DNA of 64,000 nt, from NCBI GenBank assembly GCA_009779935.1, contig WRAX01000006.1, positions 21,748-85,747 of the forward strand, given 5' to 3'. Positions 215 through 59,838 of this stretch are shown here, one piece after another. The stretch is from Defluviitaleaceae bacterium (lineage in GTDB: Bacteria; Bacillota; Clostridia; Lachnospirales; WRAX01). The notes beneath the pieces were generated by a model, which did not search any database, had not been told where the DNA came from, and was given only the letters and a program-made list of their open reading frames with translations. The position numbers were made by a program, and so were the translations under genes. How positions within the stretch are numbered: position 1 is the stretch's first letter; every line of letters begins with the position of its first letter.

Positions 215-1540
215 ATGGAAAATTTTAATATTTACCGGGATATTGCCGAGCGCACCAGCGGGGACATTTATATGGGGGTGGTGGGCCCTGTGCGCACGGG
301 CAAATCCACATTTATTAAGCGTTTTATGGATTTATTGGTGCTGCCAAATATGGAAAACCCCCATATTAAGGAGCGGGCAAGGGACGAATTGCCCCAATCC
401 GCCGCCGGCAGGGCAATTATGACCACCGAGCCAAAATTTATTCCCAACGAGGCGGTGGCCATAAGCCTTGATGATGTGGTAAATTTCCGTGTGCGGCTTA
501 TTGATTGTGTGGGGTATTTAGTGCCGGGTGCCGTCGGACATATGGACGATGATGCCCCACGCATGGTAAACACACCATGGAGCGAGCAAAAAATGCCCTT
601 CGCCCAAGCGGCAGAAATGGGTACAAAAAAGGTTATTAACGACCATTCTACCATTGGCATTGTAATCACCACCGACGGCAGCATTACCGACATCCCCCGG
701 GAGGATTACGAGGATGCCGAAGCCCGTGTAGTGGAGGAGCTTACAACAATCAACAAGCCTTTTATTATGATTCTAAACTCCACACGCCCATATGCAGGGG
801 AAACGGAGCAGTTGGCAAGCGAGCTTGGTGAAAAATACGGCATACCCGTCCTACCACTTAACTGCGCCCAATTAAAGGCGGAGGATATTACGCAAATTAT
901 GGAGCGGGTGCTGTACGAATTCCCTGTAAAAGAGCTACACATAAACCTTCCCAAATGGATAGAGCCGCTACCCATGAACCACTGGGTTAAACAATCCGTC
1001 ATCACCACCATGCAAGATATGGCACAGGGCATTTTTAAGATACGTGATATTAAAGCACACGCCGTAGCATCAATTGAGGAGAATGAGTTTATACGCAAAG
1101 CGTTTTTGGAGAGTATATCCCTTGGAGAAGGGGCTTGCGAAATCGAAATAAGTGTGGACGCCGCCCTGTTCTACCATGTGCTAAGCGAAGCCACGGGCAT
1201 GGATATTGATGGAGAGCACAAGTTGATTTCCACCATAAAAGTGCTTTCCGCTGCCAAACGGGAGTATGACAAAATCGCCGCCGCCCTTGATGAGGTAAAT
1301 TTCAAAGGTTATGGTATTGTAACCCCATCCATGGACGAAATGACGCTGGATGACCCGGAAATTGTACGCCACGGCAGCCGCTTTGGCGTAAAAATAAAAG
1401 CCAGCGCACCAAGCTTACATATTATCAAGGCCAGCATCGAAACCGAGCTGTTAATGTACAAAATGAAGGTTGCAACAGAATGGAATAAACGAGGAAATAC
1501 AAGCATTGATGTGGAATATGCATTCCGCCTTGTGGCATAA
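215..1540 (+). CDS. spoIVA: stage IV sporulation protein A, 5' portion (codons 1-411), interrupted by a mobile element; the ORF runs on through 31 element-encoded codons to a stop
   Basis: MENFNIYRDIAERTSGDIYMGVVGPVRTGKSTFIKRF (Walker A) through EPEIVRHGSRFGVKIKASAPSLHIIKASIETE is collinear with SpoIVA. Similarity ends at about 1447. A GAGGG RBS lies upstream. Confidence 0.9.
   Translation: MENFNIYRDIAERTSGDIYMGVVGPVRTGKSTFIKRFMDLLVLPNMENPHIKERARDELPQSAAGRAIMTTEPKFIPNEAVAISLDDVVNFRVRLIDCVGYLVPGAVGHMDDDAPRMVNTPWSEQKMPFAQAAEMGTKKVINDHSTIGIVITTDGSITDIPREDYEDAEARVVEELTTINKPFIMILNSTRPYAGETEQLASELGEKYGIPVLPLNCAQLKAEDITQIMERVLYEFPVKELHINLPKWIEPLPMNHWVKQSVITTMQDMAQGIFKIRDIKAHAVASIEENEFIRKAFLESISLGEGACEIEISVDAALFYHVLSEATGMDIDGEHKLISTIKVLSAAKREYDKIAAALDEVNFKGYGIVTPSMDEMTLDDPEIVRHGSRFGVKIKASAPSLHIIKASIETELLMYKMKVATEWNKRGNTSIDVEYAFRLVA
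1440..1446. repeat. junction core AAACCGA (putative attL crossover region)
   Basis: An identical 7-mer occupies the same codon phase at 18629-18635, exactly where SpoIVA similarity breaks and resumes. Confidence 0.6.
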
Positions 1541-1556
1541 ACAAGGCGGTTTTTTC
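1525..1556 (+). terminator. rho-independent terminator
   Basis: Stem ccgccttgt (1525-1533) pairs with acaaggcgg (1541-1549). A T-run follows at 1550-1555, directly after the stop of the truncated spoIVA ORF. Confidence 0.7.
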
Positions 1557-1587: not shown

Positions 1588-1911
1588 ATGGCGGTTTTTA
1601 GAGTTGAAAAGACGAAAGATTTTACGGTGATGAGCAACCATCATTTTAGAAACAGAGAGCTATCGTTAAAGGCGATGGGGCTTTTATCGTTGATGTTGAA
1701 TTTGCCCGATAATTGGGACTACACTCTTAAAGGGTTATCGACAATATGCGGCGATGGTATTTCAAGTGTCCGTGCTGGGTTGGTGGAATTGGAAACGCAT
1801 GGTTATGTTGTGCGTGTACGGCTACGTGATGAACACGGACGGCTTGCCAATACGGAGTATTCCATTTACGAAGTACCGCCGACAAAGCCGAAAAGCGTAA
1901 AATCTCCATAA
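1588..1911 (+). CDS. helix-turn-helix protein resembling the N-terminal domain of replication-initiator-like proteins of Clostridial mobile elements (short form)
   Basis: The MAVFRVEKTKDFTVMSNHHFRNRELSLKAMGLLSLMLNLPDNWDYTLKGL pattern is typical of this family. Only 107 aa are present, although homologues as I remember them are much longer. A GGGAG RBS is present. Confidence 0.55.
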   Translation: MAVFRVEKTKDFTVMSNHHFRNRELSLKAMGLLSLMLNLPDNWDYTLKGLSTICGDGISSVRAGLVELETHGYVVRVRLRDEHGRLANTEYSIYEVPPTKPKSVKSP

Positions 1912-2241: not shown

Positions 2242-2745
2242 ATGAGTAAAGAGTATATTCCAGTTGCCACAATCGACACGGTTTATTATGAGCCGCAGAC
2301 AAAAGAAGAATTTGACAAGTTGATGGAAGTCGTAAAAGTTGGGGATATGGTGTACAGTAAATGGGTATTCAGCGGTTTATGGTATACCGTTGGCCTAAAC
2401 GATATTAACGACCCCACATCAATATGCCTATTCCCCAACATAATCATGGATGAGGAATTACCGCAACTAACACGTTGGGGATTGGCTCGTTACCATTATC
2501 TGAAATCCGAGCGTAAATTCATGGCGGCGGGGTTTGGTACAGTTGGGCTGCATAAACATTGCCTTGAAGTACAAGAACAGGCTGAACAGCGAAAGGCAAA
2601 TATGATGGCTGCTATTCGCAAAGACCCCGCCAACCGTGTGTCGGAACGAGATAAAGCCGAAAACCCAATGGTGTGGGTACAGCGCATGAATCAATTTCAG
2701 GCACAAGTCCACGAAGTTATAAATACCGATTTAATCTTCAGCTAG
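2242..2745 (+). CDS. TnpV-like transposon-associated protein
   Basis: The C-terminal pattern (RYHYLKSERKF...LHKHCLEVQEQAEQRKANMMAAI...WVQRMNQFQAQVHEVINTDLIF) matches the TnpV family of Tn4451-type elements as I remember it. An AGGAG RBS is present. Confidence 0.55.
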   Translation: MSKEYIPVATIDTVYYEPQTKEEFDKLMEVVKVGDMVYSKWVFSGLWYTVGLNDINDPTSICLFPNIIMDEELPQLTRWGLARYHYLKSERKFMAAGFGTVGLHKHCLEVQEQAEQRKANMMAAIRKDPANRVSERDKAENPMVWVQRMNQFQAQVHEVINTDLIFS

Positions 2746-2773
2746 TGCCATTAAAATAGAAAGGAAGTGAAAA

Positions 2774-3121
2774 TTGAGTAAGAAAAGAACACGCAAAAAT
2801 CGCATCGTGTTTTGCTTGGACGACAGCGAATTTGAAATCCTATCACAGCGATTGCAAAAAGTCGGAATGAGAAACCGTGAGGCCTTTGTCCGCAAAATGG
2901 TTTTGGACGGCTACATCATCAACCTCGACATCAGTCCTTCGGTTGAAACAAATCGTTTGATACGAAGCATTTCCAACAACATTAACCAAATTACCAAGCG
3001 ATGTAACGAAACAGGCAGTGCTTACGAAAACGACTTTCGTGAATTACACGCCGAGGTTTGCAAATTGAAGCCGCTTATAATTCAAGCCCAAACCGAAATG
3101 ATAAAACTTTGTAAAATGTAA
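2774..3121 (+). CDS. MobC-like mobilisation (relaxosome accessory) protein
   Basis: TTG start with an AAAGGAAGTG RBS. RKNRIVFCLDDSEFEILSQRLQKVGM-NREAFVRKMVL followed by SISNNINQITKRCN is the typical MobC pattern. No relaxase gene follows. Confidence 0.6.
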   Translation: MSKKRTRKNRIVFCLDDSEFEILSQRLQKVGMRNREAFVRKMVLDGYIINLDISPSVETNRLIRSISNNINQITKRCNETGSAYENDFRELHAEVCKLKPLIIQAQTEMIKLCKM

Positions 3122-3140
3122 TCCAATACAAATTCACTTA

Positions 3141-3181
3141 GCAGCGGAACGCTTAGAAAAAAGCGTTCCGCTGCTTTTTTG
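3141..3181 (+). terminator. rho-independent terminator
   Basis: A 12-bp stem, gcagcggaacgc (3141-3152) with gcgttccgctgc (3163-3174), followed by TTTTTT. Confidence 0.8.
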
Positions 3182-3251
3182 TTTGCAAAACTGTTAAGCA
3201 CAGCGAAACAAATTTTGCAAATGGGGTCGAGGGGAAGCCCCTCGCAAGCGG

Positions 3252-3322
3252 CTGTGTTGCAACACAGACATTGCTTGCCTGTTTACCTGTTTACCTGTTT
3301 ACTCTGAAGCCCTTGTGTTTAC
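3252..3322. repeat. 16-bp perfect palindrome plus 8-bp tandem repeats
   Basis: The palindrome is ctgtgttgcaacacag (3252-3267). ctgtttac occurs three times in perfect tandem (3279-3302), with a further tgtttac at 3316-3322. Confidence 0.6.
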
Positions 3323-3573
3323 TGTGGTTTGGGATTTCGCCTCCAAAATGCACATTTATATGAATACATCTGAAAGGCTGCTTGAACAGCAGTCAATTAA
3401 GTTATCCACAATTTATGTGCAGCGCAAATTTGTAATTGTGCTGGGTCTAAATTTCTGGTATAATGTAAAATGAGGATAAGTGTGCAGATGTGCTTGTCAT
3501 AAATCATCATTTCATTTGCGCCTAATGCCTGCGTACAAGCAATCTTACAAACAGTTTCAGGGGGAACACATAT

Positions 3574-5166
3574 ATGGCAAAGATAAAAGTAAAGACAAAA
3601 ACAACCGAGCAAACATTGGAAACAATTATGATGAATTGCCGCAACGCCCTCCGTGGAACAATTGGCGGTAACGAAAAAAATCGTGATGCGGTTTTGGGAT
3701 TGGTGTTCCTAAAATTTGCAGGTTTCAAATTTGAAAATCGCCGTGCTGAAATTATTGAACAGTATGGTGATGTTCCTGCGTTTTTGGAGAAGAAGTCTTT
3801 TTATCTTTCCGAAAATGTTTTCTTCCTAAACGAAACATCACGCTGGAGTCATATTGAAATCAACGCAAGCGCAAATGATATTGCAGTAATCATTGACACA
3901 GCAATGAGGGATATTGAAGATGGCAACCCTCCGCTTAAAGGTGCGTTACCACAAAATTTTTATGTAACACTCGGCACTCGTCCTGAGCAATTGAAAGCGT
4001 TGATAGATGAGATAAACAAAATTGACGACAAACGTTTTCATGAGAGTGATTTAATTGGGCGTGTTTACGAATATTTTTTACAAGTGTTCGCAATTGATTC
4101 TGGCACAAGCAACGAAAAGGGCGAGTTCTACACTCCAGCCAGTATTGTTCAATTGATTGCTGAATTGATTGAGCCGTATTCGGGTGTGGTGTATGACCCC
4201 TGTTGCGGTTCGGCGGGAATGTTTGTGTCCTCCATCAAATTTGTGGAGCGGCACAATGGCAACCGCTCAAAAATTTCTGTGGTTGGGCAGGAACGCAACC
4301 CCGATACTTGGCGGCTTGCAAAAATGAACCTTGCAATTCGTGGAATTGCCCATAATCTTGGCGAACGGCCAGAATCCACTTTTGCGGAGGATTTGAACAA
4401 AGGCAAAATGGTTGACTTTATCATGGCAAACCCGCCGTTCAATTTGAAATTGGGTGCGCAAGGAGTAGCGCAAGACAATATGAACAGCGACCCCCGTTGG
4501 GATGGCTATACTCCACCACCAGTTTCAAATGCCAACTATGCGTGGATTTTGCATATGTTATCAAAACTGGATGTAACCAACGGCATCGCTGGATTTTTGC
4601 TTGCTAACGGTGCATTAAACGCTGATGGTGTTGAAGGTGAAATTCGCAAAGGATTGATTGAGAATGACAAGATTGAAGCCATTATCGTCCTTCCGCGCGA
4701 AATGTTCTACTCCACTGACATTTCCGTAACCTTTTGGATTTTGAACAACAATAAAAATGCACGTATACTAAATGGACGACAGTTGAGGGATAGGCGTGGC
4801 GAAGTCCTTTTTGTTGACTTGCGCCGTTGGAATGACAATATTTATGAAAAGAAATATGTGCAATTTTCTGACGAGCAGATTGATAACATAAAGAAAATCT
4901 ATACAAGCTGGCAAACAGGGGTTGATTATCAAGATGTGCCTGAATTGTGCCGTTCTGCGACAAAAGATGAAATAAAGGCACAAAAATATTCCCTTGCTCC
5001 CAGCAAGTACATTGAGTTTATAGACCATGATATGGAAATTGACTATGCAAGAGAAATGGCACGTATTCAAAGTGAGATGCGTGAGGTGTTGAGAGCAGAG
5101 AAGAAAGCCCAGTCGATGCTGGAAGTAGCTTTTAGGGGGATTGGATATGGCATTGACCAAAAATAG
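3574..5166 (+). CDS. hsdM: type I restriction-modification system methyltransferase subunit
   Basis: Carries the N6-adenine MTase motifs (VYDPCCGSAGMF, FIMANPPFN) on an HsdM-type N-terminal domain. An AGGGGG RBS is present. Confidence 0.9.
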   Translation: MAKIKVKTKTTEQTLETIMMNCRNALRGTIGGNEKNRDAVLGLVFLKFAGFKFENRRAEIIEQYGDVPAFLEKKSFYLSENVFFLNETSRWSHIEINASANDIAVIIDTAMRDIEDGNPPLKGALPQNFYVTLGTRPEQLKALIDEINKIDDKRFHESDLIGRVYEYFLQVFAIDSGTSNEKGEFYTPASIVQLIAELIEPYSGVVYDPCCGSAGMFVSSIKFVERHNGNRSKISVVGQERNPDTWRLAKMNLAIRGIAHNLGERPESTFAEDLNKGKMVDFIMANPPFNLKLGAQGVAQDNMNSDPRWDGYTPPPVSNANYAWILHMLSKLDVTNGIAGFLLANGALNADGVEGEIRKGLIENDKIEAIIVLPREMFYSTDISVTFWILNNNKNARILNGRQLRDRRGEVLFVDLRRWNDNIYEKKYVQFSDEQIDNIKKIYTSWQTGVDYQDVPELCRSATKDEIKAQKYSLAPSKYIEFIDHDMEIDYAREMARIQSEMREVLRAEKKAQSMLEVAFRGIGYGIDQK

Positions 5167-6280
5167 GTTAGGTAATTATATTGAACGTGTTGAACGCCGA
5201 AATTCAGAGCTGAAGTTCGGTGCGCTTGATGTTCGAGGTATTTCCAACAGTAAAGAAATTCAATCCACAAAAGCTAATATATCCGAGCGTTCATTTTTGC
5301 GATTTCAAATTGTTAATCCGCATGAATTTGTGTTCAATAGACGGACAACACGTATGGGAGAGAAACTAGGGCTTGGGTATAATGATATGGATGAACCCTT
5401 CATCGTTACTGAAGATTATGTTGTTTTTCGAGTCGTTGATGAAAAAATTTTATTGCCAGACTACCTCAATGTGTTTTTTCGACGTCCTGAGTTTGACCGT
5501 TATGCACGCTGGGACTCGTGGGGTAGTGCTACGGAGTTCTTTAACTGGGAGGAAATGTGTGATGTGCCAATTGACATTCCACCGCTGCCAAAGCAACAAA
5601 AATTTGTTGATGTTTATAATGCCATGCTTGCCAATCAGCGTGTTTATGAGGATAGTTTAAGTGACTTGGAAACTGCTATTTCTGCAAGCATTGAAGAATT
5701 TAAACATATCGCCCCTCGAATAGCAGTTGGCAAGCTGCTTGAAGAAGTAGACAATCGAAACCGTGATGACTCATTGTCGAATGTTCAAGGGATTAACATT
5801 AACAAAAAGTTTATGCCCTCGATAGCCAACTTAAGCACAACCGACCTTACGAAATACAAAGTTATACAGAGGGGTCAGTTTGCGTATAGTGCCATGCAAA
5901 CAGGGCGTGATGAGTGTATCCGTATAGCATTATTTCACGAGGATGAACCTGTGATAATTTCTCCTGCGTACTCGGTTTTGCAAGTCAAAACAGGAGTGGA
6001 GCGTCCTGTTCTTGCGGAGTATATAAAACTTTGGTTTAGTCGTAGCGAAAGTGATAGATATGGTTGGTTCATTAGCGATAGCAGTATTCGTGCAAGTTTG
6101 GAGTTGTCGAGGTTTTATGAAATAGAGATACCTCTGCCCTCTTTAGAAAAGCAACAAGCCGTTGTTAATTTTTACAACGCAAAGCACATGATAACCGAAA
6201 ATGTATCAAAAATAAGCAAACTTTTGAAAGAAATTTGCCCCATACTAATAAAAGGCTCGCTCGAAGAAGCCGAAGCGTAA
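5141..6280 (+). CDS. hsdS: type I restriction-modification system specificity subunit
   Basis: The start overlaps the hsdM 3' end. The protein has two target-recognition halves separated by conserved spacers (PPLPKQQKFVDVYNAM... and LPSLEKQQAVVNFYNAK...). Confidence 0.85.
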   Translation: MDMALTKNRLGNYIERVERRNSELKFGALDVRGISNSKEIQSTKANISERSFLRFQIVNPHEFVFNRRTTRMGEKLGLGYNDMDEPFIVTEDYVVFRVVDEKILLPDYLNVFFRRPEFDRYARWDSWGSATEFFNWEEMCDVPIDIPPLPKQQKFVDVYNAMLANQRVYEDSLSDLETAISASIEEFKHIAPRIAVGKLLEEVDNRNRDDSLSNVQGININKKFMPSIANLSTTDLTKYKVIQRGQFAYSAMQTGRDECIRIALFHEDEPVIISPAYSVLQVKTGVERPVLAEYIKLWFSRSESDRYGWFISDSSIRASLELSRFYEIEIPLPSLEKQQAVVNFYNAKHMITENVSKISKLLKEICPILIKGSLEEAEA

Positions 6281-6321
6281 ATTGTGCCAACACTGTCGGC
6301 ACAATTTTAGGAGGTACGAAG

Positions 6322-7350
6322 GTGCTTATAAACAACAACGAGTATTTTGAGATTTTAGAAAGTGTTAAAACGCATATAAACTGTGCCCAACACAAGGCTG
6401 TGATGGGGCTTAATCGTGAGCAGATAATCCTTTATTGGAACATTGGCAGGGTTATTTTGGATAATGCCAAATGGGGTAATAAGTTTGTGGACAACCTTGC
6501 AAAAGACATTAAACTGGAGTTTCCAAACGCAAAGGGTTATTCGGTGCGGAACTTGAAGTATATGCGCAAATTTGCTGAATTTGTGGATGATTTAGAAATT
6601 GTGCAGACACTGTCGGCACAATTGACATGGTCGCATAATAGGCTATTGCTCGACAAAACAAAATCGCTTGGTGAATATTTATGGTATGCGGATAGAACCG
6701 TGCAAGATGGGTTGTCGTTGTCTGGCTTGGAAAACCGCATTGAGCTAAAGAACTACGAGCGACAGGCAACATCAGAAAAAGTTGAAAATTATGGGCGATT
6801 ACTACCAGCACCACAAAACAGCTTAGTGACCGAAACGTTGAAAAGTCCTTATCTTTTCGACTTTATAGAGAAACATGACGATATTATCGAGCGCGAAATA
6901 GAACATGAACTTGTTGCAAATATTGTAAAAACACTCTTGGAACTTGGTACAGGGTTTGCGTTTATTGACAAACAATACACGCTGACCGTGGCGGATGTAG
7001 ATTATCATTGCGATTTGCTTTTTTACAATACACGGTTGCGTTGTTATGTCGTGATTGAGTTAAAGGCGGGCAAGTTTAAGCCCGAATACGCAGGTAAGTT
7101 GAATTTTTATTTATCTGCCGTAGACGATATGTTAAAGCATGAGCATGACAATCCAACTATCGGAATTATTCTATGCAAACATCGTGACAAGCTAACTGCC
7201 GAATACGCACTCAAAGACATTCATAAACCGATAGGCGTTAGCGAATATAAGTTATCTGATTTTGTGCCGGAGGAGCTGGCTGATACCCTGCCATCTGCGG
7301 AGGATATAGAGAAGCGGATAAAGCAGAAATACAAAATCATGGAAGATTAG
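6322..7350 (+). CDS. PDDEXK nuclease-domain protein (DUF1016/YhcG-like) embedded in the type I R-M operon
   Basis: GTG start 7 nt after AGGAGG. Shows the N-terminal pattern ILYWNIGRVI...GYSVRNLKYMRKFAEF and the C-terminal DLLFYNTRLRCYVVIELKAGKFKPEYAGKLNFY (D...ELK nuclease core). Confidence 0.7.
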   Translation: MLINNNEYFEILESVKTHINCAQHKAVMGLNREQIILYWNIGRVILDNAKWGNKFVDNLAKDIKLEFPNAKGYSVRNLKYMRKFAEFVDDLEIVQTLSAQLTWSHNRLLLDKTKSLGEYLWYADRTVQDGLSLSGLENRIELKNYERQATSEKVENYGRLLPAPQNSLVTETLKSPYLFDFIEKHDDIIEREIEHELVANIVKTLLELGTGFAFIDKQYTLTVADVDYHCDLLFYNTRLRCYVVIELKAGKFKPEYAGKLNFYLSAVDDMLKHEHDNPTIGIILCKHRDKLTAEYALKDIHKPIGVSEYKLSDFVPEELADTLPSAEDIEKRIKQKYKIMED

Positions 7351-10571: not shown

Positions 10572-12644
10572 ATGGTATTGAAAAAAATAAAGCTGAAGAA
10601 TTTTAGGTGCTTCGGTAGCGATGAAACTACCATTTCTTTTGATGACCTTACAGCATTTATCGGCGCAAACAGTACGGGTAAAACAGCAGCCATGCAAGCT
10701 ATTGTAAAACTCTTTGGTATGAATCAATCTGAGCGCGAGATACGTCGTTCGGATTTTCACTTAACCACAAACAAGTCACCAGATGATGATGAAACAATAA
10801 CTCTTTCGATAGAAGCTGTGTTAGAGTTCCCAGAACTTGAAGATGAAAGTATACCTACAGATGCAGTTGCCCACTTCTTCAAATATTTTGTCGTTGATGA
10901 AAAAGGACAGCCTCCTTATTTGCGAATTTTATTGGAATCAATATATACAAAGGATGGAACAATAGAAGGCGATGTTGATACTCGTTATTATTTTGTCACT
11001 TCCAGCGAAAAGTTAGCTATTGAAGAAACCGATAAGCGACCAACCCGCTACAGTTCTTTTTCGACAATAAGGTGTATTTATGTTCCTGCATTACGTAATA
11101 CAAGCGAACAGTTGAAGAATGTTTCTGGCACAATGTTGTATCGATTGTTAAACAGCATCGATTGGGAGGAAAGCTCGGCTGCGTTGGAAGGTCATATGAA
11201 GAAAGTTAATGACGAGATAGTCAAAGTCCCGGGAGTTAGTGATTTGCAAGATATTTTGCAAGGACAGTGGCACGGATTTCATAATGACGGGCGATACACT
11301 AACACAAAAATTGAGTTTAATTCTACAGACATGGAGAGCGCACTAAAAACGGCATCTATTAAATTTTCTCCTACAGAGATACCGCGCGATTATGAAATTA
11401 ACGAGCTTGGCGATGGTCTTCGTTCATTGTTTTACTTTTCTTTGGTTAATACGCTATTACGAACTGAGCAAAAGATTTTAGAATCCATTGAAAAAGGTGA
11501 TATTCAGGCAAAAGCACCAAAAATTACGCCCCCTGTTCTAACTATATTAGTTGTAGAAGAACCCGAAAATCATATATCGCCACAACTAATGGGTAGGGTT
11601 ATTAAGAACATTAAAGATATTGCTACTATCAACAATGCCCAGACGGTTCTGTCTTCACACACCCCAGCAATAATTAAGCGAATTGAGGCTACGAAAATTC
11701 GCCATTTTGGATATGGTAACGACCAAAAATGCTCAAAAGTAATGAGTGTATTGCTCCCAAAAAATGAGGATGTTGCCTATAAGTATGTGAAAGAAGCCGT
11801 GGAATCTTATCCCGAAGTTTATTTTGCAAGGCTTGTTATATTAGGCGAGGGTGATAGCGAAATGTCGCTACTACCGAAAGTAATTGAAGGTGCAAGTGAA
11901 AATATAGATGTGATGGGTATTTCTGTGGCACCGCTCGGAGGTAGGCACGTTAATCATTTTTGGAGATTACTTAACCAACTTGAAATACCACACATTACGC
12001 TCTTGGATTTAGATAGAGAGCGTAATGGCGGTGGTTGGGGGCGAATTAAATATGTCATTAAACAACTACTGGAAAATGGAATTGATAAAAGCGTATTATT
12101 CAACATAAATTGTAATGACAAACTTACTGACGACTGCTTAGAAAAAATGCACGAACGGGAGCAGTCTCGGGTAACAGATATGGATTCGTGGATTGGCTGT
12201 CTTGAAAAATACAACATATTTTTCTGCGCTCCTCTCGATTTGGATTTTTTAATGCTCGAAAAATATACAGAAACATATAAGGCAACCATCGAGAAAGGTC
12301 ATGGACCTGAAATTAAGGGTGTTGGAAAAGTAAAGGACATTGAACACTGTAAGCCGCCCAAGGAGGAGTATACGAGTCGAATAAAAAGCAGTATAAAGCA
12401 TACCCTTAAACAAGAGGGCGGTGATGGCGAAACGTATTCACATGAGCAACAGAAACTGATGGTTTGGTATGATTATCTTTTTCTAAATCGAAGCAAGCCT
12501 GTTACCCATTTGAAAGCCTTATCTTCTCTGGATTTTGATGATATTGCATTGTATCCAGAGCCATTAAATAAAATCGTGCAATATGTAAAAAAATGCTTAT
12601 TGAGGGAGATTCAAAATGGGGTTGGAGATAATATCACCCAATGA
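10572..12644 (+). CDS. OLD-family ATP-dependent endonuclease (ABC-type ATPase plus Toprim), GajA-like
   Basis: Walker A GANSTGKT, Walker B-like LVVEEPENHISP, and Toprim motifs LVILGEGDSEMSLLP and LLDLDRE. A GGAGG RBS is present. Confidence 0.8.
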   Translation: MVLKKIKLKNFRCFGSDETTISFDDLTAFIGANSTGKTAAMQAIVKLFGMNQSEREIRRSDFHLTTNKSPDDDETITLSIEAVLEFPELEDESIPTDAVAHFFKYFVVDEKGQPPYLRILLESIYTKDGTIEGDVDTRYYFVTSSEKLAIEETDKRPTRYSSFSTIRCIYVPALRNTSEQLKNVSGTMLYRLLNSIDWEESSAALEGHMKKVNDEIVKVPGVSDLQDILQGQWHGFHNDGRYTNTKIEFNSTDMESALKTASIKFSPTEIPRDYEINELGDGLRSLFYFSLVNTLLRTEQKILESIEKGDIQAKAPKITPPVLTILVVEEPENHISPQLMGRVIKNIKDIATINNAQTVLSSHTPAIIKRIEATKIRHFGYGNDQKCSKVMSVLLPKNEDVAYKYVKEAVESYPEVYFARLVILGEGDSEMSLLPKVIEGASENIDVMGISVAPLGGRHVNHFWRLLNQLEIPHITLLDLDRERNGGGWGRIKYVIKQLLENGIDKSVLFNINCNDKLTDDCLEKMHEREQSRVTDMDSWIGCLEKYNIFFCAPLDLDFLMLEKYTETYKATIEKGHGPEIKGVGKVKDIEHCKPPKEEYTSRIKSSIKHTLKQEGGDGETYSHEQQKLMVWYDYLFLNRSKPVTHLKALSSLDFDDIALYPEPLNKIVQYVKKCLLREIQNGVGDNITQ

Positions 12645-14499
12645 GTGGGTGCCTCAAAACATAAAACTGGAAAAGGCAGCTATGGAAGCGGTTGTCAGTT
12701 CATCAAATACGTTGATAATCGCTGGTCCGGGGGCTGGTAAAACTGAAATGCTCAGTCAACGAGCTTGCTTTTTGTTGCAAACAAACACTTGCCCATCACC
12801 CAAGCGTATCCTTGCTTTGTCTTTTAAGAAAGATGCAGCAAGCAATTTATCTGAGCGTGTACTAAAGCGTTGCGGAAAGATGTTAGCCAACAGATTGGAA
12901 TCACTCACTTTTGATGCGTTCGCTAAAGAAATATTGGATAGGTTTTATATGGCATTACCCGAAAATTTTCGTCCTGCAAAGGATTACTTTGTAGACTTGA
13001 GCTCTGAACTGCTGAGAAGGGCGTATGAATTAGCTGGGTTGCCTTACGTTAGAGAGTCTGCGACAGATGATAGAACAAATATCAAAGCTCCTGTTATGAA
13101 AATTTTACTTCACGGAAATAAAAATGCGGATTTCCAGCCTGCACTTACTTTTACGACAATTTCACGTTTAGCAAATTACTTATTGAAAGAAAATCCGCTT
13201 ATAATCAAGGCTTTACAGCTTACTTATAGTCACATTTTTTTAGATGAGTTTCAAGACACTACAACCGTACAATACAATCTTGCCAAAACTTGTTTCTTGT
13301 CAACAAGCTGCATTATAACTGCTGTTGGCGACCAAAAACAACGAATTATGGGTTGGGCTGGAGCAATGTATGATGCCTTTGACAAGTTTCAACACGATTT
13401 TGGAGCTGTTGAAAAAGCTTTAGTCATGAATCATCGTTCGGTGCCTAAGTTGGTCAAAGCCCAGTACCAGTTGTACAATATATTGTCCTCATCTGATTTA
13501 ACGGCTAATGCCAACGTCAGTTTGCACACAAGTGAGGGCTGCATAATGTCACATACGTTCGCATCGCAAATTGATGAATCAAAATACTTGAAAAATGACA
13601 TCAGAATCAAGTTGAAGAACGGAATACAACCACGTGATATTTGCATTTTAACAAAGCGGTCTATTAGCGAATATTGCCATGATTTGTTGGGTGACATAGA
13701 GGGGACGAATTTTGCGATTAGAGATGAAAGCGTTTACCAAGACTTATTAAAAGAAGATTTGGTGAAGGTTTTATACGCTTTTCAATTATGTGGAAAAAAG
13801 AACAGGGGAACAGCAGAAGCCTTTGAGTATCTACAAGAGCTATATTTACAATTTAACTCCGTTGAGATTGATGATGTAGATAAAGTGAATATTTGCTCTG
13901 CACAGTTAAATAAATCAATACATGACATGGGCATGAAAATGGCAAAAATCACTGGGAAAACCCCTGATGAAAAAGATGCGTTTTTGGATATACAAAATGA
14001 AATCATCAGTTTTTTTGACAAAAACAAGTTCATGAAACACTTCCCGCAGTATCAAAACGGTAATTTCTTCAACGAAACATTGCAAAAGTTTATTGACCTG
14101 CTTTGGGCTGAGTTTGAAAAATCTAATGATTGGAAAACAGCACTTTCTACCTTCGAGGGGAACTTATCTGTACCTGTTATGACGATTCATAAAAGTAAAG
14201 GTCTGGAATTTGATTGTGTTTATTTCGTAGGTTTAGAAGATAACTCATTTTTTACCTTCCAACACAATCGTAGCGAAGATATATGTGCCTTTTTTGTCGC
14301 AGTTTCAAGGGCAAAAAACGAACTGCACTTCACAAGATGCCTAAATAGAACTTCACTCAACAACAATTCTGGCGCACAGAGCATAACGACAATTAAAGCG
14401 ATTCATGATGCAATAGAAAGTATTGCCGATATAGAATTTTATGACCATACATCAAATGAAGAATTGAGTAACGACCACATAGCAACAAGCCTTATCTAA
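12616..14499 (+). CDS. UvrD/PcrA-type SF1 helicase, GajB-like
   Basis: Motifs AGPGAGKTE, FLDEFQDTT and MTIHKSKGLEFDCVYFVG. The start overlaps the upstream OLD-family gene by 29 nt. Confidence 0.8.
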   Translation: MGLEIISPNEWVPQNIKLEKAAMEAVVSSSNTLIIAGPGAGKTEMLSQRACFLLQTNTCPSPKRILALSFKKDAASNLSERVLKRCGKMLANRLESLTFDAFAKEILDRFYMALPENFRPAKDYFVDLSSELLRRAYELAGLPYVRESATDDRTNIKAPVMKILLHGNKNADFQPALTFTTISRLANYLLKENPLIIKALQLTYSHIFLDEFQDTTTVQYNLAKTCFLSTSCIITAVGDQKQRIMGWAGAMYDAFDKFQHDFGAVEKALVMNHRSVPKLVKAQYQLYNILSSSDLTANANVSLHTSEGCIMSHTFASQIDESKYLKNDIRIKLKNGIQPRDICILTKRSISEYCHDLLGDIEGTNFAIRDESVYQDLLKEDLVKVLYAFQLCGKKNRGTAEAFEYLQELYLQFNSVEIDDVDKVNICSAQLNKSIHDMGMKMAKITGKTPDEKDAFLDIQNEIISFFDKNKFMKHFPQYQNGNFFNETLQKFIDLLWAEFEKSNDWKTALSTFEGNLSVPVMTIHKSKGLEFDCVYFVGLEDNSFFTFQHNRSEDICAFFVAVSRAKNELHFTRCLNRTSLNNNSGAQSITTIKAIHDAIESIADIEFYDHTSNEELSNDHIATSLI

Positions 14500-14929
14500 A
14501 TTGCGAAATCTAACCGAATTTGCTACCCCATTCCAATGCGCTACATTTATCACAGTGGCAATTTGCCACCGCTCACAAAAATACAAACTGGGTAAAACGT
14601 ATCCATTATCACCACAGTGGAGTGTATGGAAAGGAAGTGATTTCTGCAAAAAGAAACTAAAATTGGCAGAACAACGTACATAATCAACGGAAAATATCAA
14701 GCAGAGGGTGTTGGAGGCTACTCTCTGCTTTGCTTCGTTTGATGGAAAAAGACTTGCCGAAAACAGCAAGTAGCGTTATTGAAATATGTGAAGGCAAGGA
14801 AAAGTCGTGTATCGAAAATAATTTCGATTATTTTCAAAAAACAGCGGCATTTACGCCAAGGGTATGTTATAATAAGAGCATATCTCAAAACGATTTGGTC
14901 TGTTCGCTACAAGCAAAGGAAATTTGATT

Positions 14930-15594
14930 GAAGCTTACGAGCAGCTAATGGACTTCATTTCACGCCACACACTTGACAGATTTTTCCTTGTGGGCAACCA
15001 GCGTGTTAGTGTGTGTCTTGGATTGCGCGTGAGCTCGTGAGCAATATTCTTGTCCATAGGGAATTTAGCAGAGGATATATGGCACGAATCATCATCGAAA
15101 AAGACCGCATACTTGCGGAAAACTGGAACAGGCCGACACGCTCGGGGCGATTGACCCTCGAAGGCTTTAAGCCCGACCCCAAAAATCCATTGCTTGCGCA
15201 TTTTTTTATTCAAATCGGACGGGCTGATGTGCTTGGCTCGGGTGTTCGTAATTTATATAAATACACGCAGATATATTCGGGCGGAGAACCACAGCTTATT
15301 GAAGACGATATTTTTACAACAATCATTCCGTTGAAATCAGAAACAAATGGGAAGATAGAGGAAGTTAGAAAGGAAGTTATAGCGGAAGTAAATTTGTCGC
15401 AAGAAAAACTAAATAACTTGCTTGAATACTGCATTACGCCAAAGAGCAGAAAAGAGATGCAAGATTTTTGCGGTATAAAATCCGACGAACATTTTCGCTC
15501 AACGGTGGTTAAACCAATGCTACACCTCGGTCTAATTAAAATGACAAGCCCAAATAAACCAAAAAGTAGAAGCCAGAAGTATTATAAGGCGTGA
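14930..15594 (+). pseudogene. 5'-truncated, frameshifted remnant of an ATP-binding putative DNA-binding protein (HATPase_c_4 type)
   Basis: EAYEQLMDFISRHTLDRFFLVGNQRVS is in one frame (about 14935-15020). ARELVSNILVHREFSRGYMARIIIEKDRILAENWNRP... continues in another (15013-15594). No N-terminal domain is present upstream. Confidence 0.55.
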
Positions 15595-15618: not shown

Positions 15619-16089
15619 ATGGGAACCAACTACTATTTTAGAAAAAAAGACGTTGATATGCCTCGGTTATATGCAATCGTCGATGCTTTGAATGCGGAGT
15701 GCAAAGTATTAGTCGCAAAGTATAACGAATTGTTGAATGAAGCGCGGCGTGAAATGGGCATCGGATACAAGCGTGAACTTGAACATTGGAACACTTACAT
15801 CTTGCCTGATGAAGGTGATGATATTGGCGATATTCATGTTGGGAAAATTTCCTATGGCTGGAAGCCGCTGATGAAGGCTGGCGAACATTTTCATTCTATC
15901 GAAACATTGCAGCGATGGTATGAGCAAAACAGGGGTGAGTATATCTTTATTGACGAATACGGCAAAACTAATTTACTTGAGGAATATTTGCTTGAAATCC
16001 GCAAAAGAAACGAGGATGCACAGAACAAAACTCATGATTACCCGATAGGTGCGGACGGATTTGAATGGACGAGCAGAGAGTTTTGTTAA
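15619..16089 (+). CDS. hypothetical protein
   Basis: A 156-aa ORF with a strong AAGGAGG RBS. No family recognised. Confidence 0.6.
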   Translation: MGTNYYFRKKDVDMPRLYAIVDALNAECKVLVAKYNELLNEARREMGIGYKRELEHWNTYILPDEGDDIGDIHVGKISYGWKPLMKAGEHFHSIETLQRWYEQNRGEYIFIDEYGKTNLLEEYLLEIRKRNEDAQNKTHDYPIGADGFEWTSREFC

Positions 16090-16161
16090 GGAAGAAGCTA
16101 ACCACTTTTTAAGCTGAACGTGTGGCGCATAAGTGCGCATTATAAACTTATAGTCATGTGC

Positions 16162-16373
16162 TTTCTAAGTTTTGCCGAAAAGTTTCTAAGTTTTGCCCGA
16201 AACTTTATAATTTTTCCTGTTTTTGATGTGCTACAATATATGTGAGGGGAACTGTGGGAAGGACTTGTTTGCGAGGTGTCTAAGAATTTCTAAAAATGTA
16301 TAAGAAGTGTCTGAGGATGTCTAAGAAAGTATAAGAATTGTCTATGGATTTCTGGTTTTTGCTGTGCTATGAT
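16162..16373 (+). promoter_or_regulatory. repeat-rich control region: direct repeats, iteron-like array and two near-identical extended -10 promoter modules
   Basis: tttctaagttttgcc(c)gaaa occurs twice (16162-16202). TTTTTGaTGTGCTAcAAT (16220-16237) and TTTTTGcTGTGCTAtGAT (16356-16373) are near-identical modules. About seven GT(C/A)TAAGAA-like units at roughly 10-11 nt spacing lie at 16276-16350. Confidence 0.4.
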
Positions 16374-16379
16374 TAAAAT

Positions 16380-16486
16380 GCGGAGGAATGCCGAAGAATT
16401 GATTTGATGTGTAGATTCTCTGCCTTTTTATTTCCCACATAAATTTGTTTTCAACCACCATTCCCTACCGGGTTGGTGGTTTTTTA
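16380..16486 (+). ncRNA. candidate small transcript (second promoter module to intrinsic terminator)
   Basis: The TGcTATGAT element ends at 16373 and a strong terminator lies at 16453-16486. Only tiny ORFs fall between them. Confidence 0.2.
16453..16486 (+). terminator. rho-independent terminator
   Basis: An 8-bp stem, aaccacca (16453-16460) with tggtggtt (16474-16481), running into a T-run. Confidence 0.6.
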
Positions 16487-16563
16487 TTGCCCTCAAAAAT
16501 CTAAATGGGCAAGCGTGACCGTTAGCATTGGCTATAGCGGGCGTTGTGAAAAGGAGATGATTC

Positions 16564-16815
16564 ATGCAAGGAAACGACAAGAAAATGGGTGCTACGAAAA
16601 GAGAGTCAAGCATACCTTTTAACAGGGGTGATGCTATGGTTAAAGTTACCACGCCAATCTGTGGGGCGAATGACCTTGCCTTTGCGCATTGGCAGCAGTA
16701 CGCTAACGAAAAGGCCTATGAGGCGAAATTGATTACAAAAGCGATGTATGAATTTGCACGGGATGAAATACATAAAACTATTGCACTCCTGTCCGAAGTG
16801 CGCTACAATGTATAG
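16564..16815 (+). CDS. small protein immediately upstream of the recombinase; candidate accessory or directionality factor
   Basis: An 83-aa ORF with an AAAGGAG RBS, ending 19 nt before the recombinase start. No family recognised. Confidence 0.5.
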   Translation: MQGNDKKMGATKRESSIPFNRGDAMVKVTTPICGANDLAFAHWQQYANEKAYEAKLITKAMYEFARDEIHKTIALLSEVRYNV

Positions 16816-16833
16816 TAAAGGCAGGTGTGTGTT

Positions 16834-18885
16834 ATGGATTTAATGAAAATGCGTAAGCTACTTGGTCAGGGCAAGTCCATTTACGACTTGCCCCTTAGGG
16901 TGGCGTATTATGCCCGTGTGTCTTCCGATACGGATATGCAACTGAACTCGCTAGACAACCAAATTACATACTTTGATGAGTTCATCAAGTCCAACAAAAA
17001 TTGGACTTTTGCAGGCGGTTATGTTGATGAAGGGTTATCTGGTGCAAGTGTAAAAAAGCGTGATGATTTTAAGAGAATGGTTGCTGATGGTGAATTGGGC
17101 AAGTTTGATTTGCTGATAACTAAGGAAATCAGCCGATTTGCTCGTGATACGCTGGATAGTATTCAATATACACGACAATTGCTTGCAAGCAATGTGGGCG
17201 TGTTTTTTCAAGCGGACAATATTTGTACGCTTTATTCAGATTCGGAATTACGACTAACCATCATGGCTTCTTTGGCGCAGGACGAGCTTCGCCGTTTGTC
17301 CGAGCGTGTGAAGTTTGGCATGAAGCAAGCGCACAAGGCGGGCAAGGTGCTTGGGCAGGATAATATGTACGGATATAAAAAGTCAAAGGGTAAACTTGTT
17401 GTTGATGAAAAGGAGGCGAAGTTTGTTCATGACTTGTATAGCTTGTATGCGGAGGACAAGTATGGTTTCCGTACTTTGGCACGGATTTTGCACGAGAAAG
17501 GCTATCGCAACCAATCGGGGGGTGAAATTAACCCAGGCAGCTTGAAAAGTATTTTGTCTAACCCGAAGTACAAAGGCTTTTACCACGGACATATCACGGA
17601 GAGTAATGACTATCGAGAGCAGAAAAAGGTCAAGACTGCGCTTGAGGATAGAATCCTGTATAAATGTGAAGAAGTCCCCGCAATCGTGTCGGAGGAGCTT
17701 TGGGAGAAGGTTAATGAAATTCTGGCTGTCCGCACATCAAAGTTTGCGAAAAAAGGGCGTGGTACAGTTCCGCAAACGCCTTATAGCGGAAAAGTTATTT
17801 GTGAGGAACACGGAACATTTCACTATCGCAAGATGTGGAAAGACCGTAAAATCCCTGCCGAGAGCTGGTGTTGTAAGGAGTATCTTGCAAAGGGTCGAAA
17901 GTTTTGTGCAACGCCGCATTTGTATACTCGGGATTTAGATGCCATACTTGAACACATAGGCGATGATTTGCTGTCCAACAAAGATAAGTATATGGCAAGC
18001 GTGGATAACCTATTGGCGATGTACGAAAAAGCCGACAACGGCGCATCTGCGGACTACGTAGGCGAAACCGCAAAACTAATGACTGCTATAAAGAAGAATA
18101 AGGCGCGGCAAGCTAAATTGGTGGAGCTATACACTGATGAAATCATTGACCGAAACGAGTTTGATGAGTTAAATACAAATCTCAAAAATGACACAGAACA
18201 ACTCAACATGGAAATTGCACGACTTAAAGAAGAAAAGAAAGCCGTAAACACAACGGCGGCACGGTTGACAAAGGTCAAGGAATTTTTCGCCACACTTTCG
18301 CCTGAGAAAATGCAGGCAACCGCTTCAAGACAAAGCGAAACCCAAATCTCTCCCGCTCTCCATGTCGCACAAGCCATGTTGGAATCTGTCACCATTCTCA
18401 AAGATAGCACTAAAACGGAAATGAAAATCCGCATTGACATGAAATTGGGTGGTACGACCGACTGCACCCTCGCTACTTTCGGCAAGCGGGATGCCACAGA
18501 GCATTTTGTTCTGGATGCTGAGGAAATTGAAAAAATCCTACGCTCAGACCCACCCGATGAATATGCTGAAAACCTTGAAGATGCTGGATTAACTGGCTTT
18601 GACAACAAAAATGTTATAAAGTACAGTCAAACCGAAATAAGCCCCATTGTGGGCAGCGAGCAAGAAAGCCGTGATTTAGTGGACTATTTTAACCGTGAGA
18701 TGGCGGAGCATCCTGATAAGATTTGGGAGCTTAATATGTTTGGCAAATCCATGCACAGCATGGTACGGGACGGATTACAAAACAAGCTGTACCGTATGCC
18801 GGACGATGCCCAGGTTAAAATGCAGGAAGCCTTGCAAAAAATCATAAACGAAGGCAGTGGGGGCATGGTTTGTATCTTGTTGTAA
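16834..18885 (+). CDS. large serine recombinase (SpoIVCA/TnpX-like) whose ORF continues in frame into the 3' 82 codons of spoIVA
   Basis: Resolvase catalytic domain (VAYYARVSSDTDMQLNSLDNQ...ISRFARD), recombinase domain, Cys-rich zinc ribbon and a coiled coil. A DUF4368-like segment (MLESVTILKDSTKTEMKIRIDMKLGG) follows. No stop codon occurs before 18885. Confidence 0.9.
   Translation: MDLMKMRKLLGQGKSIYDLPLRVAYYARVSSDTDMQLNSLDNQITYFDEFIKSNKNWTFAGGYVDEGLSGASVKKRDDFKRMVADGELGKFDLLITKEISRFARDTLDSIQYTRQLLASNVGVFFQADNICTLYSDSELRLTIMASLAQDELRRLSERVKFGMKQAHKAGKVLGQDNMYGYKKSKGKLVVDEKEAKFVHDLYSLYAEDKYGFRTLARILHEKGYRNQSGGEINPGSLKSILSNPKYKGFYHGHITESNDYREQKKVKTALEDRILYKCEEVPAIVSEELWEKVNEILAVRTSKFAKKGRGTVPQTPYSGKVICEEHGTFHYRKMWKDRKIPAESWCCKEYLAKGRKFCATPHLYTRDLDAILEHIGDDLLSNKDKYMASVDNLLAMYEKADNGASADYVGETAKLMTAIKKNKARQAKLVELYTDEIIDRNEFDELNTNLKNDTEQLNMEIARLKEEKKAVNTTAARLTKVKEFFATLSPEKMQATASRQSETQISPALHVAQAMLESVTILKDSTKTEMKIRIDMKLGGTTDCTLATFGKRDATEHFVLDAEEIEKILRSDPPDEYAENLEDAGLTGFDNKNVIKYSQTEISPIVGSEQESRDLVDYFNREMAEHPDKIWELNMFGKSMHSMVRDGLQNKLYRMPDDAQVKMQEALQKIINEGSGGMVCILL
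18629..18635. repeat. junction core AAACCGA (putative attR crossover region)
   Basis: Identical to 1440-1446 and in the same codon phase (cAA ACC GAa versus gAA ACC GAg). Confidence 0.6.
18636..18885 (+). other. spoIVA: spoIVA 3' portion (last 82 codons)
   Basis: ISPIVGSEQESRDLVDYFNREMAEHPDKIWELNMFGKSMHSMVRDGLQNKLYRMPDDAQVKMQEALQKIINEGSGGMVCILL* matches the conserved SpoIVA C-terminus (B. subtilis ...RIINEGSGGLIAIIL, from memory). Confidence 0.9.
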
Positions 18886-18896
18886 TTATAATGTAG

Positions 18897-18922
18897 GGTG
18901 GGGCTTGCCCCCACCTTTTTTT
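18897..18922 (+). terminator. rho-independent terminator (spoIVA side)
   Basis: GC-rich stem ggtgggg/ccccacc with loop cttgc, followed by TTTTTTT. Confidence 0.75.
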
Positions 18923-57418: not shown

Positions 57419-57728
57419 TTTATCCTCGCTTTATAATTCCTTATGTTCTGTTTGTTGTGAGTATTGCGACCATATTACATCTCCCAATTATGGTCATAGC
57501 AAACAAGGCTTCGGAAGCAAAAACCACCGACGGCAGTTCGCATATATCAACACATTCTTCGCCCATGCGTTCAAAAAACAGGCTTTGCACTCCCACAATG
57601 CTGGTCATAACATGTCACCCCAAGTCATTTCTGCCCAAAATCAAATCTATCAGTCGGCTCTTCCTCCACTTTATCAAAGTACCTAATAACAGTATCATGC
57701 TTTTGCGTTTACCAAGCCCCACACCCCT

Positions 57729-58232: not shown

Positions 58233-58464
58233 GTCCGCACTCCCTTTTTAACATTAAAGTTCTATCTCGCCACTGCACTACCCGCCCAAAGCGCAAATCC
58301 ACAGCTCAACCTTGCTTCGTGTCTTTTTGCAAAGATTTGATGTGGCTGACAGTCGTCATTTTGCCAAACCACTTTCAACATCGTCAAAATTCAATTTATA
58401 CTTTATTCTATATGTGTTAATCATTAAATTTTCTGTAAGTACTACATTCGCCTTTATTTTCAGG

Positions 58465-58722: not shown

Positions 58723-58828
58723 ACTACTGCAACTTCAACTGTTGTCATCTCTATCCCCCTTACAACAATTTCTTGATCTCATTTTCCGCATACAAACTTA
58801 TTATTTCTGACTCGCAACCCCAAGCTCC

Positions 58829-59827: not shown

Positions 59828-59838
59828 TTTCTATCCTC

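Follow-up and report, generated by a model that had tools for sequence, protein, structure and literature searches.

The stretch of DNA analyzed here (64,000 nucleotides from a Defluviitaleaceae bacterium, hereafter the window) carries at positions 10572-14499 two overlapping genes, termed gajA-like and gajB-like, which can be assigned with a probability of about 0.8 to the Gabija-type (class-2 OLD) anti-phage or anti-foreign-DNA modules, within a clade of long-form proteins. By every sequence-level criterion tried, the pair belongs to the Gabija / class-2 OLD group. Both genes reside on an element that interrupts the sporulation gene spoIVA. The initial annotation of this DNA had described them as cargo of a sporulation intervening element, and in silico this description holds: spoIVA is split, it rejoins precisely, and the same site is used in at least 68 recombinase lineages. 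The pair itself is ordinary, being another instance of a large and catalogued long-form Gabija clade, and it is the carrier that is the moderately novel part. The locus is a reminder that what is understood of the Gabija mechanism derives almost entirely from a single short-form system with only ~17% identity.

Identity of the nuclease-helicase pair

The two open reading frames (ORFs) of 690 and 627 amino acids and their overlap of 29 nucleotides (12616-12644) were borne out as the initial annotation had given them. Each start codon is preceded by a Shine-Dalgarno-like sequence, namely GGAGGAAG before the gajA-like ATG at 10572 and GAGGGAG before the gajB-like ATG at 12616, and alignments of homologues place the same start residues in both proteins. 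All of the motifs quoted in the initial annotation are likewise present. In the GajA-like protein these are GANSTGKT at residue 31, EEPE at 329, GEGDSE at 425, and DLD at 479 and 556, such that the Walker A lysine (K37), Walker B (E329-E332), the H-loop histidine (H363), the Toprim glutamate (E426), and the DxD motifs (D479/D481 and D556/D558) are all intact, with K613 as a further key residue. The GajB-like protein has AGPGAGKTE at residue 36 and DEFQD at 210, along with the additional superfamily 1 (SF1) motifs GDQKQ (238), NHRS (272), HKSKGLE (525), and VAVSRA (561); as an SF1 helicase of the UvrD/PcrA/Rep type it is complete, and none of motifs I-VI is disrupted. This motif and domain content is far beyond chance for both proteins.

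Profile (hidden Markov model) searches, which the initial annotation had suggested, matched the PADLOC GajA and GajB profiles as well as the Pfam OLD/Toprim and UvrD families. The PADLOC GajA profile PDLC00090 matches the GajA-like protein over its full length (E=2.7e-239, profile positions 1-654 of 659), and the GajB profile PDLC00103 does the same for its partner (E=1.8e-198, positions 3-602 of 612). Among Pfam families, AAA_15 covers residues 1-368 (2.1e-28) and OLD-like_TOPRIM residues 418-481 (7.5e-16) of the GajA-like protein, whereas the GajB-like protein matches UvrD-helicase (1.2e-35) and UvrD_C (2.1e-19). Because the two profile-matched genes are adjacent, the pair qualifies as Gabija, and as a class-2 OLD system, in the operational sense. 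The NCBIfam names PtuA, MAD3, retron Eco8, UvrD, PcrA, and Rep were also considered and were rejected, as all of their scores are far below the cut-offs.

Residue-level comparisons point in the same direction. K37, H363, and E426 of the GajA-like protein align directly with K35, H320, and E379 of Bacillus cereus GajA, which are the Walker A lysine, the mediator of ATP inhibition, and the catalytic Toprim glutamate, respectively (PMC8136825). Among 53 homologues of the GajA-like protein, there is no variation at K37, E426, D479/D481, D556/D558, or K613 and hardly any at H363 (at least 90% conserved), and helicase motifs I-VI are invariant in 53 homologues of the GajB-like protein. Judged by position and conservation only, D556 and K613 would be the equivalents of D511 and K541 of B. 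cereus GajA.

AlphaFold2 models were built from the 53-sequence alignments. The GajA-like model is acceptable, with a predicted local distance difference test (pLDDT) score of 80.2, a predicted template modelling score (pTM) of 0.78, and a helical insert at approximately residues 177-320 that is of low confidence; the GajB-like model is good, the corresponding values being 86.9 and 0.77. When the GajA-like model was compared with the PDB by using Foldseek, the top match was B. cereus GajA (8u7i_A, E=1.4e-19, query TM-score 0.54, target TM-score 0.59, 17% identity), followed by 8x5i and 8sm3_A, with the class-1 OLD protein of Thermus scotoductus (6p74) and the retron Eco8 OLD effector at lower ranks. 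The moderate TM-scores can be attributed to the fact that this is a multidomain protein with flexible parts. The best matches of the GajB-like model are full-length UvrD, PcrA, and Rep (from 3.8e-29 downwards). Sequence comparison with solved structures by phmmer gives a similar picture: B. cereus GajA is matched at 1.7e-10, though only over residues 322-490 of the GajA-like protein, and B. cereus GajB at ~3e-7 over residues 185-257 of the GajB-like protein, which matches Rep, UvrD, and PcrA far more strongly (1e-24 to 1e-22). The class-2 OLD plus UvrD (Gabija) architecture proposed in the initial annotation is therefore supported by the PADLOC and Pfam matches, by the GajA matches of the predicted structure, and by the retention of the pairing in distant homologues.

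In common with the Gabija system of B. cereus VD045, there are two adjacent genes, one for an ABC-ATPase plus Toprim protein with equivalents of K35, H320, E379, and the DxD motifs, and one for a UvrD-like SF1 helicase. The differences are in size (690 and 627 amino acids here, 578 and 494 in VD045), in sequence (~17% identity), and in the helicase, which is UvrD/PcrA/Rep-like at full length. As estimated from alignment offsets, the GajA-like protein is longer by ~41 residues within the ATPase/helical insert portion and by ~65 within the C-terminal helices, and the GajB-like protein by ~48 residues N-terminal of motif II and ~85 after it. Another point of reference is provided by the class 2 OLD nucleases of Burkholderia pseudomallei and Xanthomonas campestris, reportedly characterized by Schiltz et al. 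in 2019. There too an OLD ATPase-Toprim gene stands in tandem with a UvrD/PcrA/Rep-like helicase gene, and the Toprim region of the GajA-like protein matches the structures of their C-terminal regions (6njv, 5.2e-08; 6nk8, 1.3e-07), but the sequences are distant. PMC8136825 describes these proteins as nucleases reported to be non-specific and does not decide how they relate to Gabija function.

The initial annotation had also remarked that both proteins are longer than the canonical ones and may represent a divergent subtype. Strong divergence from the B. cereus VD045 proteins is indeed evident, but the sequences are already covered by PADLOC profiles of 659 and 612 positions, and the searches indicate that the longer proteins form a populous clade that detection tools recognize, rather than an unrecognized subtype. 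Members of this clade combine a nuclease of ~640-720 amino acids with a helicase of 605-634 amino acids and occur in Bacillus, Clostridium, and many metagenomes. In a word-indexed search, an identical protein appears as 'MAG: AAA family ATPase [Defluviitaleaceae bacterium]', and all but one of the 120 best matches are 673-718 amino acids long at 47-90% identity, Bacillus wiedmannii and Pseudobacillus included. An exhaustive search of 1.84 billion representatives at 50% identity gave 302 matches to the GajA-like protein at E<=1e-30, and the best 150 of these are nearly all end-to-end matches to proteins of 640-720 amino acids. By these sequence counts, 150 or more clusters at the 50% identity level belong to the long-form clade, nearly all of them with proteins of 640-720 amino acids. 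The parallel helicase family (605-634 amino acids) is found in Clostridium perfringens, Clostridioides difficile, Paeniclostridium sordellii, and others. No biochemical study of any long-form member was found in the searchable papers.

Pairing of the two genes is kept in a variety of settings. A rock-porewater contig (L012) carries a stand-alone pair, whereas in Pseudobacillus wudalianchiensis (L014) it lies beside a Cap4-nuclease gene and prophage genes, and on megaplasmids of the B. cereus group it is annotated as an OLD family endonuclease next to a PcrA helicase. A third conserved gene of the system was considered and rejected, given that the downstream neighbours differ between L012, L014, and the window.

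Upstream of the pair are the genes hsdM, hsdS, and hsdR of a Type I restriction-modification (R-M) system and a gene for a YhcG/DUF1016 nuclease (Table 1). The six genes of this cassette are on the same strand and are separated by gaps of 16-41 nucleotides or overlap slightly, with 34 nucleotides between hsdR and the gajA-like gene. A terminator scan revealed strong hairpins at 3140-3175 and 14699-14730, and on the + strand between 3175 and 14699 no long-stemmed terminator was predicted, only stems of 5-7 pairs inside ORFs. Thus, the genes from hsdM to gajB-like probably form one transcription unit that likely ends at the 14699-14730 hairpin. The same six-gene cassette, with a GajA that is 90% identical, is present in another contig beside a different large serine recombinase and TnpV, and in that second recombinase element the helicase gene is truncated to 431 amino acids. 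R-M and Gabija are probably independent modules that travel together, given that the more distant homologues of the pair lack such a neighbour. Copies of the cassette in L010 and L011 have a split hsdS and a truncated gajB. Also, the palindromic 28-mer AAATTGTGCCAACACTGTCGGCACAATT occurs in two copies that are 93% identical, one at the hsdS/yhcG boundary (6279-6306) and one inside the yhcG-like gene (6596-6623).

The carrier element in spoIVA

When the two AAACCGA cores at the element boundaries are joined in silico, 17,189 bp are removed and an in-frame SpoIVA of 493 amino acids results, which matches TIGR02836 with 750.5 bits (cut-off 459.9) over positions 1-492 of 492. The predicted junctions read ...ATCGAAACCGAAATAAGC... 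for attB and ...CAGTCAAACCGAGCTGTT... for attP. In the integrated state, the upstream ORF (215..1540) encodes 441 amino acids, of which residues 1-411 are SpoIVA, followed by 30 unrelated codons of the element and a stop at 1540. At the other end, the large serine recombinase gene (100% identical to P0241) abuts attR and has no stop codon of its own, so that its frame runs through attR into the spoIVA 3' fragment. The G+C content of the element is 37-42%, compared with 47-50% in its flanks, and the remainder of the window is core chromosomal DNA, with rpoB, rpoC, recA, pnp, tgt, uvrA, and uvrB.

This arrangement is not confined to the window. A recombinase search recovered at least 68 protein clusters (38-100% identity) with a Resolvase + Recombinase + SpoIVA_C architecture. 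In all of them the junction (slash) has the form ...TE/[IV]SP[ILV]VG... and lies exactly 82 residues from the end. The insertion point is the same throughout, with ...ETE on one side and ISP... on the other, and leaves the last 82 codons of spoIVA beyond it. Among species-representative genomes, such fusions turned up in the named organisms Anaerovirgula multivorans SCA, Pseudoflavonifractor intestinihominis, P. capillosus An827, and Ruminiclostridium papyrosolvens C7. They are also present in assemblies of Anaerotruncus, Dysosmobacter, Oscillibacter, Lawsonibacter, and Lachnospiraceae, which are metagenome-assembled genomes (MAGs) or uncultured isolates, and in many MAGs of Oscillospiraceae and Defluviitaleaceae. 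The spoIVA gene is an apparent recurrent target of site-specific recombinase elements in many anaerobic Firmicutes, cultured strains included. The SpoIVA C-terminal domain fused to the integrated recombinase might influence the localization or timing of that enzyme. In a minimal element of ~3 kb (L063), little is present beyond the recombinase and small ORFs, and there the recombinase and spoIVA are not in frame.

A separate observation concerns a Defluviitaleaceae MAG contig (L047, WRBU01000165.1), in which a second recombinase lineage (positions 2300-3718), ~43% identical and in the opposite orientation, abuts the spoIVA 5' fragment. Its junction is ~8 codons upstream, after ..APSLHI, which suggests that this part of spoIVA was colonized independently.

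Immediately 5' of the recombinase gene lies a small ORF (16564-16815) that is kept at the same position in three other spoIVA elements, at 70%, 64%, and 28% identity, and is a candidate for the recombination directionality factor (RDF). Alignment of three elements revealed a conserved non-coding block upstream of this ORF, GGTGGTTTTTTAT...TCTAAATGGGCAAGCG, for which no interpretation was reached. The non-coding region 16150-16340, also upstream of the RDF candidate, contains short direct repeats (TTTCTAAGTTTTGCC twice, and GTCTAAGAA-like units, among them a 31-nucleotide tandem pair at 16266-16327), a cluster that may be a binding array for a regulator.

Cargo varies among the relatives. One element carries HipA, one a Type III R-M system and a HEPN/nucleotidyltransferase pair, and one RHS toxins; toxin-antitoxin genes are also among the cargo seen. 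In the recombinase-proximal cargo of 27 elements, the defence-like genes include those for Type III R-M, PDC-M13 and PDC-M10 candidates, dynamin-like proteins, and HEPN proteins, and other genes encode GH53/dockerin, SLH, ABC transporter, and chemoreceptor proteins. With such mixed cargo in these 27 elements, the notion that all spoIVA elements are defence islands was rejected; defence is one frequent kind of cargo and not the sole kind.

No description of a recombinase element inserted in spoIVA was found in a literature search that had most subscription journals outside its reach. It can be proposed, if only tentatively, that these elements make up a widespread and apparently undescribed family in Clostridia, one that occupies a single codon of spoIVA, is excised early in the mother cell by its recombinase and RDF, and passes variable cargo through spores.

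Developmental excision and alternative explanations

The product of spoIVA is the basement layer of the spore coat, and the gene is switched on early in the mother cell. In C. difficile it is a sigma-E (mother-cell) gene (PMC5025042), and the known targets of intervening elements (sigK, spsM, spoVFB, spoVR, gerE, cotJC, spoIIID, and yabG) are likewise all mother-cell genes (PMC5025042; 10.1101/2022.02.25.481979; PMC5595907). Regulated excision of the spoIVA element in the mother cell seems reasonably likely. Both halves of spoIVA are intact, the C-terminal fragment is conserved in many host lineages, and minimal spoIVA elements persist. Since spoIVA is an early sigma-E gene, excision would have to precede or coincide with sigma-E activity. 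With a developmentally timed excision, the principle of the gene-intervening element would extend to an early sigma-E gene, and such elements would be vertically inherited carriers of defence and conflict systems.

There are several known elements with which this one can be compared. Among the sporulation gene-intervening elements (skin, gin, vfbin, and SPbeta type), the gin element in gerE of B. cereus ATCC 10987 (PMC5595907) is similarly not a prophage, splits a mother-cell sporulation gene, and encodes serine recombinases, and its R-M cargo is the nearest precedent for defence genes on intervening elements. However, gin is 28.6 kb long, targets a different gene, has three recombinases, and lacks Gabija, and its sporulation-specific excision was shown by experiment, whereas excision here is inferred. 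The skin elements in sigK (Bacillus subtilis, C. difficile, and 12 further species) also have variable cargo and range from ~2.6 to 48 kb (10.1101/2022.02.25.481979), and in C. difficile their excision needs the small RDF CD1234, which is under sigma-E control (PMC5025042; 10.1101/2022.02.25.481979). The spoIVA elements differ from skin in their early sigma-E target and in a recombinase ORF that is usually in frame with the 3' fragment of that target. With the clostridial mobilizable transposons of the Tn4451/Tn4453 type, the element shares a large serine recombinase (TnpX-like), TnpV, and mobilization accessory genes, but no relaxase (TnpZ-type) gene was seen among its genes. The cargo of such transposons is antibiotic resistance, and they have no particular link to a sporulation gene. 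The HTH_36, TnpV, and NikA/MobC-like genes at the left end, unaccompanied by a relaxase, recall Tn4451-type transposons that have lost, or never had, Mob.

By analogy with B. cereus Gabija, the GajA-like and GajB-like proteins would assemble into a hetero-oligomer in which nucleotide binding at the ATPase domain holds the Toprim nuclease off. Depletion of nucleotides by phage replication would then release the nuclease to nick or cleave DNA, and the helicase-like partner might sense DNA ends and hydrolyse (d)ATP/(d)GTP, thereby amplifying the response. Co-transcribed with hsdM, hsdS, the yhcG-like gene, and hsdR, the pair could form part of a layered defence cassette. During sporulation, the recombinase and the small RDF would excise the element in the mother cell and restore spoIVA there, and the forespore chromosome would keep the element along with its defence genes. 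The initial annotation had pointed out that the pair would be removed from the mother-cell chromosome, and excision from spoIVA is indeed precise in silico, but the excised circle would stay in the mother cell until lysis, so that removal from the chromosome would not amount to a loss of defence there. Without a mother-cell-specific loss of defence, the consequence for Gabija, if excision is true, is therefore inheritance through the spore germ line at no cost to sporulation.

A number of observations weigh against this account. For the pair, they are the ~17% identity (Foldseek alignment) to the only biochemically characterized GajA, the absence of B. cereus GajB from the top 50 Foldseek matches of the GajB-like model, and the absence from NCBIfam of a Gabija model that names either protein. 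In view of the low GajA identity and the missing GajB match, sequence-specific nicking, nucleotide sensing, and a 4:4 complex are extrapolations when applied here. The case for co-transcription with the R-M genes is the absence of a predicted terminator. Regarding excision, the RDF has candidate status only, the sequence derives from a MAG for which sporulation was not observed, and no convincing sigma-E- or sigma-K-like -10 element was recognized when positions 16080-16860 were read by eye. Also, the 26-nucleotide exact pattern of the empty site (attB) had 0 matches in metagenome contigs. This last result does not bear on excision either way, as it could be explained by strain variation or by a lack of element-free relatives. 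A sigma-70 promoter scan was uninformative (54 sites, compared with 42.8 +/- 7.3 in shuffles).

Other roles for the pair can be envisaged. It might mainly serve the element, by excluding or degrading competing plasmids, integrative and conjugative elements, or integrative elements, or through an addiction-like stabilization, rather than defend the host from phages. The pair is found on mobile DNA (this element, the second recombinase element with the same cassette, and plasmids of Bacillus, Lactobacillus, and Rhizobium), and the founding OLD protein, that of phage P2, is an inter-phage exclusion factor. Such a context does not discriminate, however, as defence systems generally ride mobile elements; stand-alone chromosomal copies of the pair exist, and PADLOC assigns it to Gabija, a family with shown anti-phage activity. 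An element-serving role is unlikely. Slightly less probable still is that the pair extends the upstream Type I R-M system into a composite six-gene machine, in which Gabija might, for instance, act on DNA ends made by HsdR. The tight arrangement on one strand, with no terminator between the genes, and the preservation of the whole cassette at ~90% identity in another element would fit this proposal. Yet the cassette has come up in very close relatives alone, and its conservation is therefore a sign of recent common descent. Moreover, the more distant homologues have no R-M genes beside them, and B. cereus Gabija functions on its own (PMC8136825). A housekeeping role as a DNA-repair nuclease and helicase is very improbable. 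In its favour, the closest matches of the GajB-like protein by both sequence and structure are UvrD, PcrA, and Rep, and a part in repair was at one time suggested for OLD-family proteins (see PMC8136825). However, none of the NCBIfam equivalog models for UvrD, PcrA, and Rep comes near its cut-off (132 vs 965 bits), genuine uvrA and uvrB genes exist elsewhere in the window, and the pair has a patchy, plasmid-borne distribution and lies on a low-GC, horizontally acquired element beside an R-M system.

The most serious alternative concerns the carrier and not the defence module. The element could be of an ordinary integrative kind, similar to Tn4451, which simply disrupts spoIVA or is excised at random, with no developmental timing in the mother cell, in hosts that are asporogenous or phase-variable for sporulation. 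The TnpV and NikA/MobC-like genes point to an ancestry among mobilizable transposons, and since a large serine recombinase always excises precisely, reconstitution of spoIVA in silico does not by itself prove developmental control. Moreover, neither a sporulation-type promoter nor an attB contig was found, and many carriers are gut Oscillospiraceae known only as MAGs. Against this stand the two spoIVA halves, both of which are intact ORFs, and the 82-residue C-terminal fragment, which keeps its conserved residues and its SpoIVA_C match in at least 68 diverged backgrounds and so speaks for ongoing selection on spoIVA and for its regular restoration. Furthermore, the ~3-kb minimal element persists, in parallel with the skin elements of 2.6 kb (10.1101/2022.02.25.481979), and spoIVA is needed only in the terminal mother cell, as is every other known target. 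An ordinary element is accordingly a possibility to be kept in mind, if not the preferred one, and regulated excision in the mother cell seems somewhat more likely.

Feature coordinates and minor observations

The coordinates of all features discussed are collected in Table 1. Two further proteins of unknown kind are also encoded in the element. The ORF at 15013-15594 has just the C-terminal parts Fic-like_C and HATPase_c_4 and is probably what is left of a larger regulator gene; no long ORF lies upstream of it in 14500-15012.

Table 1. Features of the spoIVA element and its boundaries, in order of position in the window.
Feature	Position	Strand	Matches and remarks
spoIVA 5' fragment (SpoIVA residues 1-411)	215..1446	+	Pfam SpoIVA_ATPase 1.3e-120, SpoIVA_middle 1.3e-64
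attL core AAACCGA	1440..1446	+	common to attR; left element boundary
Terminator-like hairpin	1525..1549	+	just 3' of truncated spoIVA ORF; 9 bp stem, 6 GC pairs, T-run
HTH_36 DNA-binding protein	1588..1911	+	Pfam HTH_36 2.4e-07
TnpV-like protein	2242..2745	+	Pfam TnpV 7.2e-19
NikA/MobC-like relaxosome accessory protein	2774..3121	+	Pfam NikA-like 2.1e-09, MobC 6.4e-07; terminator 3140-3175 follows
hsdM, Type I R-M methyltransferase	3574..5166	+	HsdM_N, N6_Mtase on identical gene in L001
hsdS, Type I R-M specificity subunit	5141..6280	+	Methylase_S (faint) in L001; position between hsdM and hsdR
YhcG/DUF1016 PD-(D/E)XK nuclease gene	6322..7350	+	Pfam YhcG_C 3.4e-60, DUF1016_N 1.1e-34; start as in L001
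hsdR, Type I restriction subunit, 1056 aa	7367..10537	+	HSDR_N, ResIII, SWI2_SNF2, T1RH-like_C in L001
gajA-like gene	10572..12644	+	class-2 OLD ABC-ATPase + Toprim nuclease, 690 aa
gajB-like gene	12616..14499	+	UvrD/PcrA/Rep-type SF1 helicase, 627 aa
Terminator-like hairpin	14699..14730	+	12 bp stem; first long-stemmed on + strand after 3175
Fic-like_C / HATPase_c_4 fragment	15013..15594	+	Pfam Fic-like_C 2e-12, HATPase_c_4 2.7e-04
Small ORF directly 5' of recombinase	16564..16815	+	conserved part from M25 (16636); no Pfam/NCBIfam match
Large serine recombinase	16834..18628	+	Pfam Resolvase 2.5e-28, Recombinase 6.7e-19, Zn_ribbon_recom 4e-05; SpoIVA_C in same ORF
attR core AAACCGA	18629..18635	+	right element boundary
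spoIVA 3' fragment, last 82 codons + stop	18636..18885	+	Pfam SpoIVA_C 6.2e-33; terminator 18895-18917 follows

Outside of the element, the region 57000-60000 has a G+C content of 0.375-0.45 and a strongly negative GC skew, and lies between uvrA (54590-57418, - strand) and uvrB (59839-61824, - strand). This patch, which includes a gene for a 332-amino-acid protein with a PDDEXK_3 domain (58829-59827, - strand), may be another small insertion.

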